Shown: positions 12,661 through 50,793 of the stretch, in pieces
Layout of the letters: each line of letters begins with the position of its first letter
Position numbering within the stretch: position 1 is the first letter of the stretch
Origin: an uncultured Candidatus Saccharibacteria bacterium
GTDB lineage: Bacteria > Patescibacteriota > Doudnabacteria > UBA920
Direction: 5' to 3'
Length of the DNA stretch: 64,000 nt
NCBI GenBank assembly: GCA_964512925.1
Contig: CAZEKH010000005.1
Location: 4,325 to 68,324, forward strand
Program-made: the position numbers and the translations under genes
Notes under the pieces: generated by a model
The model's input: only the letters and a program-made list of their open reading frames with translations
Told to the model about the DNA's origin: nothing
Databases searched by the model: none

Positions 12661-13218
12661 TTACTTTTTTATTGAGAATTTTTTATTCAGCCAGATTTCG
12701 CCAAGTATCCAAACCACCAAAAAAACACTGATTAAAGGGAGAATGATTTGAAAAGGCGAATTTGGCCAGGAAATGTTATGAGCGATATGGCGGTGGATGA
12801 AGCCGATGAACAAAGCTCCCCACCAGCCCGTTTGGGAGATGGCTGTGGTGAGGAAAATTCTAAATCTGAAAATTTTTGACAAGTTTTCATATTCTGAGGC
12901 TTTGCTCAAGCCTTTTTTTATCAGGTGCAGAAATATGCCATTTAAACCTAAGAGCGCAACTAAGAAAAGTTTAACCCAAGTGAGGTTGTCTATATATCCT
13001 TTAAGATAGATCAGATTAACTCCTGAAACCACCATTCCAAGCCAGCCGGCCCATATGAGGGGTTGGGTGATGGCAGCGGTTTTTTTCACTCTATCCAGTG
13101 AAATTTTTTTCCTCAGCATTAAAATTCCGGTGGCGTCTATAACCATAACTGAACCAAAACCTAAAATCAGGAAAGTTAAGTGGAAAAAAAGCGCGATATA
13201 AAAATGTAAAGAATCCAT
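12661..13218 (-). CDS. hypothetical integral membrane protein
   Basis: 185 aa, 5-6 predicted TM helices; convergent with the ATPase gene. Confidence 0.45.
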   Translation of the reverse strand: MDSLHFYIALFFHLTFLILGFGSVMVIDATGILMLRKKISLDRVKKTAAITQPLIWAGWLGMVVSGVNLIYLKGYIDNLTWVKLFLVALLGLNGIFLHLIKKGLSKASEYENLSKIFRFRIFLTTAISQTGWWGALFIGFIHRHIAHNISWPNSPFQIILPLISVFLVVWILGEIWLNKKFSIKK

Positions 13219-44510: not shown

Positions 44511-44595
44511 ATGAAAAAAAATAAATTCCAAATTAAATATCAGAGCATGGAGTGGTAGTTTTTGTTTGGCTTAAAGTTTTAGGCATAACATTAAG

Positions 44596-44618
44596 ATTCC
44601 CGTTTTCACGGGAATGAC
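44596..44618. repeat. TCCCG/CGGGA hairpin element (GATTCCCGTTTTCACGGGAATGAC) in the glyA leader
   Basis: same GGGAATGAC family as 4712, 48621, 49393. Confidence 0.5.
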
Positions 44619-47533: not shown

Positions 47534-48538
47534 ATGGACAGTGTTATTCCTGTTACACAAATACCACAAAATTCTACTAACGAATCTTCGAATTCGCTTG
47601 TTCCTTCAGGATACCCTGGAACTGCTACAACGCAGGATTTTTTAGCAAATGACAACCCGTTTCAGCCCCAAGTTCCTAATGCGCTTAAAGCGGAAGAAAA
47701 AAATCTTTCTGAAGACAGAGTTTCTTACGCTGACGCAAAAATCCAGGAAATTGAAGTTTCTAAAATAGTTGCCAACCCTTTCCAGCCAAGAAAAACTTTT
47801 AACCCGGAGGCTTTAAAGGAGTTGGCTGATTCTATCCGCGAACACGGGGTGATTCAGCCTTTGGTGGTTACCGAAACACCAAATGGTTATGAAATTGTGG
47901 TAGGGGAAAGGCGTTTTCGGGCAAGCCAGCTGGCTGGTCTTTTGAAAGTTCCAGCTATCGTAAAAAGCCAGATGGTGGACCAGACTAAGCTGGAAGTAGC
48001 GCTCATAGAAAACATCCAAAGGCAGGAGTTAAATCCTATAGAAGAAGCGATGGCCTATGACAGGCTAATGAAGACTTTTGACTTGACCCAAGACCAGGTG
48101 GCAAAGAAAGTTGGAAAGTCGAGGCCCGCAGTTGCCAACACTGTCAGGCTCTTAAACCTGCCTGCGGAAATCCAAAGAGCTTTGATAGAAGGCAAAATCA
48201 CCGAAGGGCACGCCAGGGCGCTTTTGGGGCTCATAGACAAAGACAAGATGCTTTTAATGTTTCAGAAGATCCAGGAAGAAGGTTTAAATGTGCGCCAGGT
48301 GGAGCTGAAAGTCCGCGAGCTTTCCATCCGCAGGCGGATGGACGCGGCAATGCCCGACCCAAAGCTGATGGCGCTTGAAACCGAGCTTCGCGGCCGTTTG
48401 GGCACCCAGGTGAAGATCCAAAAACAAGGCACCGGCGGCAGGATCACTATAGAATATTTTTCCGAAGACGAGCTAAATGAGATCATCCATAAAATGGCAG
48501 AAAATAAAAATCAGGATAGCCAATATTTAACGGTTTAA
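47534..48538 (+). CDS. parB: ParB/Spo0J chromosome partitioning protein with ~60-aa low-complexity N-terminal extension
   Basis: 'IVANPFQPRKTF', 'GVIQPLVVTE..YEIVVGERRFRA' ParB box, HTH 'QVAKKVGKSRPAVANTVRLL'. Confidence 0.85.
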   Translation: MDSVIPVTQIPQNSTNESSNSLVPSGYPGTATTQDFLANDNPFQPQVPNALKAEEKNLSEDRVSYADAKIQEIEVSKIVANPFQPRKTFNPEALKELADSIREHGVIQPLVVTETPNGYEIVVGERRFRASQLAGLLKVPAIVKSQMVDQTKLEVALIENIQRQELNPIEEAMAYDRLMKTFDLTQDQVAKKVGKSRPAVANTVRLLNLPAEIQRALIEGKITEGHARALLGLIDKDKMLLMFQKIQEEGLNVRQVELKVRELSIRRRMDAAMPDPKLMALETELRGRLGTQVKIQKQGTGGRITIEYFSEDELNEIIHKMAENKNQDSQYLTV

Positions 48539-48620
48539 AACATATATCCTTGGCCTTTGATTTTTAAGCTTTTTCAGATTTTACCTATTTTTTTAAGTGC
48601 TTTTTATCTCAGTCTCTGTT

Positions 48621-48644
48621 GTCATTCCCGCGAAAGCGGGAATC
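48621..48644. repeat. TCCCG/CGGGA hairpin element (GTCATTCCCGCGAAAGCGGGAATC)
   Basis: 8-bp perfect stem. Confidence 0.5.
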
Positions 48645-48704
48645 TAAGTTTGAGAGAATTTTCGGTACTAACAGATATAAACTGTTTTTCTGTGGAAAAC
48701 TGCA

Positions 48705-48733
48705 TTTGACAAGTTTTTGCTAGGGGTATAATA
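48705..48733 (+). promoter_or_regulatory. near-consensus sigma70 promoter (TTGACA-N15/17-TATAAT)
   Basis: gcatTTGACAagtttttgctaggggTATAATat. Confidence 0.55.
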
Positions 48734-48739
48734 TATATA

Positions 48740-48893
48740 AAATCTATGCAAAGAAATTTTTCCCACAACCTCATTATTTCTCTCCCGGTCGTCAAGACCT
48801 GGGTGTTTAAAATGCGGGGTAGTGTGGGAAAGAAAAGATAACAGTAGTATAAGTAAAGTTTCCACACCATACCCCGCAAAGAGCGGGTTTTTT
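48740..48893 (+). ncRNA. candidate ~150-nt small RNA between the consensus promoter and an intrinsic terminator (identity unknown)
   Basis: no credible ORF or SD; TTTCCCACAACC pairs GGTAGTGTGGGAAA with alternative partner TTTCCACACC; terminator CCCCGC-AAAGA-GCGGG + T7 at 48871..48893. Confidence 0.35.
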
Positions 48894-49010
48894 TCTGGGT
48901 AAGAGAAACTTAGAGAAATAGAATGTTAGAGAATTAGAGAGATAGAGTGTTAGAGAGGAAGAAAGTTAGCAAAGTAGATAAAATGAACTTTAAAAATTTT
49001 TTGTAGTTTT

Positions 49011-49128
49011 ACCCCCTCTCCCGTGTGGGAGAGGGTTGGGGTGAGGTTTCAGCGATGGTAATAAAACCAAGGTTTGTTATTATCAAACATTATTACCTCA
49101 CCCTAGCCCTCTCCGTGATCGGAGAGGG
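49011..49128. repeat. symmetric composite of two palindromic elements in opposite orientation around an AT-rich inner hairpin
   Basis: CCCTCTCCCGTGTGGGAGAGGG+TTGGGGTGAGGT ... ACCTCACCCTAGC+CCTCTCCGTGATCGGAGAGG. Confidence 0.65.
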
Positions 49129-49475
49129 AATCTGAAAAAGGCTTGAAATATTTATTATTTGTTCTTTAAAACTTAACACCAACCGCCCACAAAAGTTTTT
49201 CCAACAATTGATTTACTGATTATCAGATATTCTGATCAACTTGGAACTTCTTTTGTGTGCAGTCCGTTTGTTTTTATTTCTTTTCCTCCCGCTGGTCGGG
49301 ACGGACACAAGATGGAATCTCATTCCAAAGCACATAAAAACAAAAAAGGCACACGAAAGTTTGGGCAGATCTTGGCTTACCAGCCACTAAAAAATCCCGT
49401 TTTCAAAATTCGGGATTCTGCCCATAGCTATCCGGGCCGCGCAATTTGCTGGCCCATTCGTTCGAGGAGGAAAAA

Positions 49476-49679
49476 GTGGATAGACCAAAGGCATCCACGG
49501 GTGTTGGTCAAAAATTTTGTCAAAGTTGTCGTAGAACTTCAACTTTCATCACCGTGCAAGGTGACGGACATGAGATTGAAGTTTGTGAAAACTGTTTGAC
49601 AAACGGCGAACCAATATCTAGATTCAACGATCCGGATTATGCTTCGGATGTATCGGCCATGAGACTAATCATGGTCTAA
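49476..49679 (+). CDS. hypothetical small zinc-ribbon protein (GTG start after GGAGG SD)
   Basis: 67 aa; CQSC..(17)..CENC; locally GC-rich patch. Confidence 0.3.
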   Translation: MDRPKASTGVGQKFCQSCRRTSTFITVQGDGHEIEVCENCLTNGEPISRFNDPDYASDVSAMRLIMV

Positions 49680-49808
49680 CCAGCAACAGACTTAAAGAGC
49701 AAGTACTTGGGTAGTACCCTGCAATTATACCGCTCTTCAGGTCTTAACCCCGGGGTTCACCAGCTGACCACCATCGGCTAGTGGATCCCGGGCCACTCAA
49801 TTTTTTCT

Positions 49809-49846
49809 TCCTCTCCGTTATCGGAGAGGGTAGGGTGAGGTAACGG
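49809..49846. repeat. palindromic element (CCTCTCCGTTATCGGAGAGG + GTAGGGTGAGGTAACGG)
   Basis: same family, reverse orientation. Confidence 0.65.
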
Positions 49847-50013
49847 ACTCAAAATTCAAATCAGATTTATAAATCATTTAAACTTAAAATCCCCATTTTG
49901 GTTGGGAATGACGGAAAAAACATAAAAATTTCATACCCCCAAAAACCTATTAAATTTTTTGATAAGTTCTTGGGCGCATGAAAGCGCTCGATATTGGTTT
50001 TGTTGGAGGAACA

Positions 50014-50169
50014 ATGAGTGACACTAAACCGCAGGAGCCTGCAATTCGCGCCACAAATAAGGGTCTTAAAAAACCCCGACCACATTACGAGGTCGTAGTA
50101 CACCCGGAAACCCGGAGTGTGGATGTGATCCTAAAACCGTGCGAAGAATGCAAAACCTGCAAGACCTGA
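50014..50169 (+). CDS. hypothetical small Cys-rich protein (C-terminal CEECKTCKT)
   Basis: 51 aa from internal ATG with GGAGGAACAATG SD; followed by strong terminator. Confidence 0.35.
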   Translation: MSDTKPQEPAIRATNKGLKKPRPHYEVVVHPETRSVDVILKPCEECKTCKT

Positions 50170-50179
50170 CAGGTTTTTA

Positions 50180-50252
50180 GGCAGAGCCGCTACTAATTTA
50201 GTCTTTCTTAGACTTTTTTAGCAGAGGCTCTGCCACTATTTTTTTTATTTTT
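50180..50252 (+). terminator. long nested hairpin GGCAGAGCC..AGTCTTTCTTAGACT..GGCTCTGCC followed by T-rich run
   Basis: 9-bp outer stem + inner palindrome + TTTTTTTTATTTTT. Confidence 0.55.
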
Positions 50253-50262
50253 AAATTCGGGT

Positions 50263-50294
50263 GTCAAACTAGTCACATATGTGACTAGTTTGAC
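50263..50294. promoter_or_regulatory. perfect 32-bp palindrome GTCAAACTAGTCACATATGTGACTAGTTTGAC
   Basis: fully self-complementary; architecture shared with 46814..46849. Confidence 0.4.
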
Positions 50295-50308
50295 AGAGGT
50301 TGGGTTTT

Positions 50309-50330
50309 TGGTTGGGATGCTTTGGAATCC
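50309..50330 (-). pseudogene. degenerate copy of the tRNA-Pro 3' terminus
   Basis: TTTTTGGTTGGGATGCTTTGGAATCC vs tRNA TTTCTATGGTCGGGATGCTGGGAATCG. Confidence 0.4.
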
Positions 50331-50452
50331 TTTTCGCTGCGACTCGTAGCCGGGGCGTTATACTCAAGCATTCCAAATAGTCGTGCTTTTCTCATGCACT
50401 TCGATTCCAATAATTTTTATACCAAATAAAAAATACCGAAATTATTTCGGTA

Positions 50453-50473
50453 TTTTTTATTTGGTCGGGATGC
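50453..50473 (-). pseudogene. copy of the tRNA-Pro 3' terminus (acceptor 3' strand + CCA + flanking T-run), 20/21 identical
   Basis: TTTTTTATTTGGTCGGGATGC vs TTTTTTCTATGGTCGGGATGC at 50560..50580; then a non-tRNA hairpin CCCCGAC..GTCGGGG. Confidence 0.5.
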
Positions 50474-50568
50474 CCCGACGACCACTTCGTGATGTCGGGG
50501 TAAACTGGGTATTTCCAACAACCTATAACCATAGAAAAAAGCGCGACACAAGAACACACTTTTTTCTA

Positions 50569-50642
50569 TGGTCGGGATGCTGGGAATCGAACCCAGACTA
50601 CATCCACCCCATGGACGCGTACTACCACTATACTACATCCCG
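50569..50642 (-). tRNA. tRNA-Pro (anticodon GGG), CCA encoded
   Basis: reverse complement: CGGGATG acceptor, D arm GTAT-AGTGGTA-GTAC, anticodon arm CGTCC-ATGGGGT-GGATG, T arm CTGGG-TTCGATT-CCCAG, CATCCCG-A-CCA. Confidence 0.8.
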
Positions 50643-50720
50643 ATTTAAACCTTAGATTAACGATGACTTATAAACTATTTTGTTCAGGTGCTTGTCCGCC
50701 GAAGCCTCGGCGAAGGAGGA

Positions 50721-50744
50721 TACTACCACTATACTACATCCCGA
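50721..50744 (-). pseudogene. 24-nt exact copy of the tRNA-Pro 5' portion (acceptor + D arm), no T arm
   Basis: TACTACCACTATACTACATCCCGA identical to 50620..50643; then hairpin CGCCGAAGCCTCGGCG. Confidence 0.5.
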
Positions 50745-50793
50745 ATTGCAAAACAGATAATATTCTAACAAAACTTAAAGTTATGGGCAAATG

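Follow-up and report, generated by a model that had tools for sequence, protein, structure and literature searches.

The 2-kb stretch between parB and a tRNA-Pro gene in DNA from Candidatus Doudnabacteria is, on balance, probably a composite of three parts: a conserved attenuator-like unit, a fast-evolving islet of micro-protein genes and the scars of recombination at tRNA-Pro. It lies in a 64-kb window, by which we mean the whole stretch of DNA that was analysed and to which coordinates refer unless a relative is named. The conserved unit (48691-48896, ~200 bp), which an initial annotation had listed as a small RNA (sRNA) candidate, is best read from its sequence as a ribosome-dependent transcription attenuator, whose terminated product of ~150 nt may also act as an sRNA. 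That annotation had regarded the entire 2 kb as the eroded remnant of an integrated element, a view that conservation across distant relatives would speak against; such conservation was found for the unit, which directly follows parB in 20 of the 25 Doudnabacteria lineages compared, and in part for a 67-aa open reading frame (ORF) further downstream. All the features that the annotation listed were recovered where it had placed them.

The parB gene (47534-48538) encodes a protein whose best match, at 83% identity, comes from a Doudnabacteria metagenome-assembled genome, and the identical protein occurs on a single contig each in NCBI and Logan. By its ParB the host is a member of Candidatus Doudnabacteria, within the Candidate Phyla Radiation (CPR)/Patescibacteria. 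The local gene order is tRNA-Leu(+), parB(+), the 2-kb stretch, tRNA-Pro GGG(-) and maf(+). For comparison, collections of genomes, metagenomes and assemblies yielded ~25 distinct parB loci of Doudnabacteria, which carry labels from L001 to L101. The genes for tRNA-Leu, ParB and tRNA-Pro are syntenic across these loci, and the gap between parB and tRNA-Pro measures as little as 9 bp in L047 and as much as about 2.5 kb in L095.

A conserved promoter-to-terminator unit follows parB

A hidden Markov model built from 17 units gave a single strong nhmmer match per locus, invariably after parB (E 8e-19 for the window), and no second strong copy was found in the 64-kb window. In L005 and L058 the unit is still matched although a 23S-IVP gene has been inserted between it and parB; five lineages (L009, L047, L062, L094 and L100) lack it. 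The layout is shared by all 20 lineages: TTGACA is followed after 16-18 nt by a TAnnnT -10 element, an ATG lies 7-45 nt further on, and a long hairpin and an intrinsic terminator complete a unit with a total length of 141-161 nt. In the window, the sigma-70-type promoter (48706-48734, +) comprises TTGACA at 48706-48711, a 17-nt spacer and TAATAT overlapping TATAAT at 48727-48734, and the terminator (48873-48896, +) consists of a CCCGC-AAAGA-GCGGG stem (48873-48887) and a U7 tract. A terminator made of a GC stem and a U-run is found in all complete units. The initial annotation had proposed an RNA bounded by such a promoter and terminator; both signals are present and the candidate RNA of the window folds with a z-score of -3.5, but promoter-like sites are not enriched in the 2-kb region (five observed, 5.0 expected). 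Terminator-like sites are mildly enriched there (seven observed, 2.8 +/- 2.0 expected). Most units carry a short G-rich motif (AGGGG, GGGG or GGGTA) after the terminator U-tract, which in the window reads CTGGGT (48897-48902).

Upstream of the promoter, 6 nt before the -35 hexamer, lies a DnaA-box-like 9-mer, TGTGGAAAA (48691-48699, +). Boxes of the TGTGGAWAA type (DnaA box, at most one mismatch) were found on the same strand, starting 14-16 nt before the start of the -35 element, in 13 of 19 units, against a background density of 0.9 per kb. A replication origin at this locus was considered and rejected, as the region holds one box and no box cluster, and GC skew is positive throughout, with no switch; the 64 kb hold 22 DnaA boxes (15.9 expected), unclustered.

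Searches of the window and nine relatives against Rfam, at gathering score and at E <= 10, returned only tRNAs, with nothing credible at E <= 10 over 48740-48896. Public annotation places an 82-aa antisense ORF over the conserved unit (48622-48879, -, corresponding to L056 1803-2051); this ORF has no Pfam match and is probably spurious, hiding the actual feature.

The leader frame is maintained, its peptide much less so

The transcript would begin with a leader short ORF (sORF) of 31 codons (MQRNFSHNLIISLPVVKTWVFKMRGSVGKKR; 48746-48841, +), which has no Shine-Dalgarno (SD) sequence. The first ATG after the -10 element opens an ORF of 25-34 codons in all 12 complete units that were tested by shuffling, where the chance of a first ATG opening at least 25 codons was 0.07-0.30 per sequence. 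The same holds for seven further complete units that were read, and the L003 unit, truncated by the end of its contig, keeps the frame open for the 26 codons that precede that end. A conserved AAG (the Lys anchor) follows the ATG at a distance of 45, 48, 51 or 54 nt in each of 20 units, always a multiple of three. In two close pairs, 14 of 25 substitutions fall at third positions and stop codons are swapped for stop codons.

Evidence for selection on the peptide itself was sought in the 13-codon core of all units, where column entropies at the three codon positions (1.47, 1.26 and 1.31) showed no third-position excess (p = 0.64). A conserved GCGGGG near the end of the ORF is read in three different frames among species, change between L093 and L101 is mostly non-synonymous, and the motif I-x-L-P-(V/T)-x-F-K-x-V-W is only loosely retained. 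The leader peptides matched no family in Pfam or NCBIfam. A frame that is maintained while its peptide is not under strong selection is the signature of a regulatory leader ORF, and the sequences suggest that in this leader the frame matters and the peptide does not.

Overlapping hairpins suggest a terminator/antiterminator switch

Hairpin P1 (48784-48803, +; CCCGGUC-GUCAA-GACC-U-GGG) lies within the sORF and is followed by a U-rich tract. When the peptide was recoded with synonymous codons, the natural sequence of the P1 region proved the more stable one in 18 of 19 units (mean z -1.8, p about 1e-4). The P1 stem sequences differ among species; P1 is under RNA-level selection. The long hairpin P2 (48813-48878, +) is a putative antiterminator, the 5' arm of which (48813-48830) lies within the last sORF codons and the 3' arm of which (48859-48878) overlaps the 5' arm of the terminator.

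To follow nascent folding, each transcript was folded up to the point where the 3' arm of the terminator would emerge. The terminator 5' arm was paired upstream in 17 of 18 folds of type-1 units and in all three type-2 units, which are paralogues described below. Pairing with the upstream region gave a stabilisation (ddG) of -5.5 kcal, compared with -2.8 kcal when that region was shuffled (p = 0.0017). Relative to the sORF stop codon, the upstream partner maps between -25 and +15 nt, mostly between -13 and +5, in 20 of 21 units. The three arms of the switch co-vary between species, as judged by an arm-by-arm comparison that is not a formal covariation test: they read GCGGG / CCCGC / GCGGG in the window, GGGCAG / CUGCCC / GGGCAG in L006, GGUUUAGGGU / ACCCUAAGCC / GGCUUGGGGU in L097 and GGUAGUU / AACCACC / GGUGGUU in L098. 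A covariance model, which was built on two close units (R1), recovered the unit of the window with an E-value of about 1e-6, and was abandoned because it was too narrow and mis-registered P1.

These features are consistent with the following mechanism. A DnaA-box-like operator, to which DnaA may bind, and a strong sigma-70 promoter would drive a transcript of about 150-155 nt that begins with the ~30-codon leader ORF. The last leader codons would form the 5' strand of P2, and the 3' strand of P2 would double as the 5' strand of the terminator. If the leader is translated, a ribosome that reaches the stop codon would keep P2 open, so that the terminator forms and transcription ends with the release of a ~150-nt RNA; slow or stalled translation would instead let P2 form and block the terminator, and RNA polymerase would read into the small genes downstream, placing these under the control of the unit. 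P1 and its U-tract may make the polymerase pause and thereby keep it coupled to the ribosome.

Paralogous units occur inside the islets of relatives

Units with the same arrangement of hairpin, antiterminator and terminator (type-2 units) were found inside the islets of L007 (9900-10041), L061 (3538-3687) and L098 (4726-4866), each 65-75 nt upstream of an SD-led ORF. Their sORFs of 28-31 codons are very hydrophobic (e.g. MNYLTTPLTIIALSVLGVVINIGKRVGG) and resemble single transmembrane helices (e.g. MSNLTAQIISILSLVVGVVVNIGKKGRLELD). A 26-codon ORF in the window (49055-49135, MVIKPRFVIIKHYYLTLALSVIGEGI), which holds the right arm of a composite palindrome, tentatively resembles the type-2 sORFs of L007 and L061. 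It is followed by a weak match to the 3' third of the conserved unit (49138-49200, +; nhmmer E 0.18, not significant alone), and 49055-49200 might tentatively be a decayed second unit, a weak assignment.

Besides the zinc-ribbon proteins described below, a second recurrent small-protein type was seen in the islets of L007 (10116-10304), L097 (4625-4822), L098 (4937-5263) and possibly L057 (4034-4210). These proteins are helical, with a loose motif identified by eye, ...(I/V)R.IQ.RL...L...L, and in L007 and L098 they follow the type-2 units.

A variable islet of micro-protein genes

From 48897 to about 50260, the window would hold a fast-evolving islet of SD-led micro-protein genes set among palindromes resembling repetitive extragenic palindromic (REP) elements and a simple repeat. 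Past the unit, each relative has different, GC-richer DNA (0.42-0.52) with one to three small same-strand ORFs that have strong SD sequences. The islet of the window is likewise GC-richer than its surroundings, and between the unit terminator and tRNA-Pro no blastn or tblastx similarity was found between the window and relatives, bar a marginal zinc-ribbon match.

That match belongs to the 67-aa ORF (49476-49679, +), with a GTG start, a GAGGAGG SD sequence and a CxxC-N18-CxxC arrangement, which was found as initially annotated. Like small zinc-ribbon micro-proteins in general, its product has two CxxC knuckles ~18 residues apart in a protein of <100 aa. Homologues occupy the same position in L004 (E 2e-9), L093 (8e-6), L095 (3e-5), L007, L097 and L101, and the family follows the pattern CxxC-x3-T-x-H-I-x-V-x3-(D/N)G-x4-6-CxxC, in which the four Cys are invariant. 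These positional homologues contradict the statement of the initial annotation that the interval from parB to tRNA-Pro lacks any conserved protein gene, and the promoter/terminator unit is itself conserved.

No ORF of the region matched Pfam, NCBIfam or PHROG profiles (the sORF peptides were compared with Pfam and NCBIfam only), and for the small ORFs these libraries gave nothing past weak generic zinc-finger matches. The 67-aa ORF has no Pfam or NCBIfam family and no significant PDB match, and a word-index search of protein databases returned no match to it; matches among 1.8 billion cluster representatives were discarded as spurious, being confined to giant Cys-rich proteins. An AlphaFold2 (AF2) model consists of beta-hairpins at a pLDDT of 60, and points to no more than a generic zinc-ribbon-like fold; neither AF2 with Foldseek nor a PDB sequence profile was informative. 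A profile search brought up only six proteins, which does not exceed the number of small ORFs known from these loci, and the family is tiny in public databases. Downstream of the gene lies a terminator-like hairpin, AGTGGATCCCGGGCCACT, with a T-run (49780-49807, +).

The 51-aa ORF of the initial annotation was also recovered, with its GGAGG SD sequence (50014-50169, +) and the strong terminator behind it (50180-50253, +), in which a T-run follows a hairpin (50180-50234) whose arms are 25 nt long. This ORF is an orphan, for which no homologue was found in protein-family libraries, at the loci of relatives or in the phage search.

Palindromes and repeats

The TCCCG hairpin noted initially, CATTCCCGCGAAAGCGGGAATC (48623-48644, +), is a dispersed REP-like palindrome, of which a second copy with two mismatches lies at 44595-44616 on the minus strand. 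A second kind of short GC-rich palindrome, GCCGAAGCCTYGGCGAAGG, occurs at 50697-50716 and near parB in L002, L006 and L059. Both kinds recur within and between genomes in the manner of REP elements. The micro-repeats claimed beyond the unit correspond to 7.5 copies of the period-8 sequence TTAGAGAG (48910-48969, +), which is lineage-specific and has no counterpart at the loci of relatives or elsewhere in the window.

A composite palindrome (49014-49128) was found as described, with 34-nt arms (49014-49047 and 49095-49128) that are 79% complementary; it consists of two inverted REP-like units of the form CCTCTCC-N5-GGAGAGGG-TWGGGGTGAGGT. A third copy of this unit lies at 49810-49843 (+). The three are the only close copies of CCTCTCC...GGAGAGGG-GGGTGAGG in the 64 kb and all fall inside the 2-kb region, while the 19-nt core has two further matches in the window, at 12835 and 25736, each with three mismatches. 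A perfect 34-bp palindrome, TGTCAAACTAGTCACAT|ATGTGACTAGTTTGACA (50262-50295), is unique in the window and was not found in any fetched locus of a relative; a role as an operator or as a recombination site is conceivable.

Probable recombination scars at tRNA-Pro

The segment from about 50300 to 50750 would represent the scars of repeated recombination at tRNA-Pro(GGG) (50569-50642, -), the 3' end of which faces the 2-kb stretch. An att-like direct copy of the last 12 nt of the tRNA gene and 9 nt of its flank (19/21 identical) lies at 50453-50473 (-), 107 bp from the tRNA. Weaker 3'-end copies, which are degenerate, were found at 50306-50330 and 49896-49912, and none of these repeats brackets the 2 kb. 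The 19/21 copy is abutted by a perfect palindrome with 22-nt arms (50421-50465), likely a bidirectional terminator. On the other side of the gene, a direct copy of the tRNA 5' part (26/27) lies at 50721-50747 (-), where the 5' end of the tRNA gene would be expected behind the sole good promoter (50790-50762), with the same geometry as between promoter and tRNA in L004. The arrangement, here and in the relatives named next, has the appearance of a short cassette with a whole tRNA-Pro that replaced the middle of an older gene, or of repeated two-sided integration.

An intact tRNA-Pro(GGG) is flanked by direct partial self-copies (5' part, 3' part or both) in at least four species: that of the window, L061 (4136-4180 and 4350-4368), L008 (10251-10269) and L047 (8956-8969). 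Relatives also carry selfish or insertion-prone genes around parB or tRNA-Pro, namely DUF559/Vsr-like, LAGLIDADG and GIY-YIG genes and one for a 23S-rRNA-IVP four-helix-bundle protein (L095 2597-3013 and 4107-4457, L101 2319-2999, L098 5411-5752, and after parB in L005 and L058). Together, the partial tRNA copies and the homing-endonuclease and IVP genes indicate a recombination hot spot. The genes for tRNA-Leu CAA and tRNA-Pro GGG flip strand between related species while the adjacent protein genes keep their orientation, with L002, L004, L007, L008, L047, L057-L061, L093, L097 and L101 in one group and the window, L001, L006, L095 and L098 in the other. No integrase, recombinase or other mobile-element gene was found in the 2-kb region, and a phage or viral origin of the islet was rejected, as phage searches gave no match.

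Alternative explanations

Several observations weigh against an attenuator. The leader ORF has no SD sequence in most species (a few have AAGGA) although the adjacent small ORFs have strong ones, and neither regulatory codon runs nor a known arrest motif is evident in the leader sORFs of the units. The predicted balance between hairpins also varies, as the terminator is much stronger than P2 in L001 and L097 and no upstream pairing of its 5' arm is predicted in L004. RNAalifold gave no consensus on MAFFT alignments of the units, in which hairpin registers drift, so the structural evidence comes from per-sequence folds and their controls rather than from formal covariation. The strongly hydrophobic type-2 sORFs could be functional membrane peptides. 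Finally, the next SD-led ORF of the window lies 580 nt downstream of the unit, behind repeats, and the coupling of the unit to a downstream gene may have been lost there. Two other readings of the unit were considered. It might be a stand-alone gene for a functional hydrophobic micro-peptide, for example a DnaA-controlled inhibitor of the cell cycle or division or a type I toxin, with P2 and the terminator as the 3' structure of its mRNA. The ORF maintained in all units, the hydrophobic core and basic C-terminus of its product, the helix-like type-2 paralogues, and the strong promoter, terminator and DnaA-box-like operator would suit such a gene. We nevertheless consider it rather unlikely, given that the conserved core has no codon-position periodicity, the C-terminal motif is read in three frames, the L093/L101 changes are mostly non-synonymous, the peptides have no Pfam or NCBIfam match and no SD sequence precedes them; for a type I toxin, moreover, no antisense promoter was found in the window. 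Alternatively, the unit might be a purely non-coding, trans-acting sRNA in which the AUG and open frame are incidental. Its discrete promoter and terminator bounds, its fold z-score, the RNA-level selection on P1 and the lack of both an SD sequence and codon periodicity agree with this, but every complete unit has an open frame of 25-34 codons that starts at its first ATG and changes length only in frame, which is hard to explain without translation, and the stop codon sits at the 5' arm of P2 in 20 of 21 units. We regard a purely non-coding role as quite improbable.

The reading proposed in the initial annotation, that all 2 kb derive from a single element, integrated at tRNA-Pro and since eroded, and that the hairpins and small ORFs are decaying debris, concerns the region as a whole. 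The distal DNA is indeed unalignable between relatives, the islet is GC-richer than its surroundings, and the gap is polymorphic in size and content (9 bp to about 2.5 kb) except for the proximal unit. The repeats of the tRNA-Pro 3' end and 5' part, with similar partial copies in L008, L047 and L061, and the GIY-YIG, LAGLIDADG, DUF559 and 23S-IVP genes at the locus in relatives point in the same direction. However, the proximal 200 bp are kept in 20 lineages, the zinc-ribbon family recurs at the same position, and neither an integrase nor phage similarity was found. The strongest att-like repeats flank just 74-107 bp beside the tRNA rather than 2 kb. Moreover, tRNA-Pro has the islet on its 5' side in most relatives, an arrangement that classic integration at a tRNA 3' end cannot explain. 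A single decayed element therefore seems unlikely for the whole stretch; the remnant or hot-spot reading is partly supported, in that it fits only the distal part, with its lineage-specific micro-repeats, REP-like palindromes, 51-aa ORF and partial tRNA-Pro copies, and the hot spot at the locus speaks for it over no more than a few hundred bases near tRNA-Pro. The attenuator within a composite region remains our preferred explanation. A bolder version of it, in which the unit would be a DnaA-gated sensor of translation status near parB, with a terminated product that may be an sRNA, and would release diversifying zinc-ribbon and helical micro-proteins, is put forward as a tentative possibility.

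Comparison with known systems

The attenuators of amino-acid operons (trp, his, leu and ilvGMEDA type) are leader-peptide transcription attenuators. The unit resembles them in its promoter-proximal short ORF, in a terminator 5' arm that can pair upstream as an antiterminator, in a leader stop codon at the upstream arm, so that a terminating ribosome would favour the terminator, and in an upstream hairpin and U-tract that resemble a pause site. It differs from them in having neither regulatory codon runs nor an SD sequence, in the DnaA-box-like operator upstream, and in being followed by variable micro-proteins rather than by a biosynthetic operon, in a CPR organism that is an auxotroph. The sda gene of Bacillus subtilis is a DnaA-controlled small gene encoding a 46-aa soluble protein, and has an SD sequence and no attenuator. 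The unit shares with sda the placement of a DnaA-box-like motif immediately before the promoter of a very small gene, in the vicinity of genes for replication and segregation, but it has a single candidate box. At the distal end, comparison can be made with tRNA-gene integration sites, which carry att repeats, and with integrase-less att-flanked remnants, which are termed CIME-like. The tRNA 3'-end direct repeats beside an intact gene and the variable neighbouring DNA are shared with such sites and remnants. The locus differs in that no more than about 100 bp are bracketed by the repeats, a copy of the tRNA 5' part is also present, no integrase was found and the islet lies on the tRNA 5' side in most relatives.

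In the ribosome-mediated attenuation of bmrCD, for which BmrB is the leader (PMC4191407), and of mef/mel (PMC4335068), translation of or stalling on an upstream small ORF selects between the terminator and read-through; both systems control drug transporters and respond to antibiotics. By analogy, the signal sensed by the unit would be translation status rather than an amino acid. Unlike bmrCD and mef/mel, the unit is not followed by a transporter or resistance gene, shares no sequence similarity with them and is known from sequence alone. A further precedent is the trpL attenuator of Sinorhizobium, in which the terminated RNA (rnTrpL) and the peptide (peTrpL) act in trans (PMC7298713). It shows no homology to the unit, and illustrates how a terminated attenuator product of ~100-150 nt can double as an sRNA or micro-peptide; a comparable dual role would reconcile the sRNA candidate of the initial annotation with the leader ORF.

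Significance

The conserved unit lies in a seemingly empty intergenic stretch and was missed by standard annotation pipelines, which illustrates that an ORF-poor and hairpin-rich region need not be a decayed one. CPR/Patescibacteria genomes are small and poorly annotated, and to our knowledge almost nothing is known of their cis-regulation and small genes. If confirmed, the unit would be among the first ribosome-dependent attenuators described in CPR, and would offer a handle on DnaA-linked regulation in these organisms as well as a marker for a micro-protein family under its control. Should the more tentative DnaA-gated sensor prove true, it would constitute a new regulatory cassette, tandem-duplicated in some genomes as type-1 and type-2 units, through which organisms that have a minimal regulatory repertoire link the expression of micro-proteins to replication status and ribosome activity.

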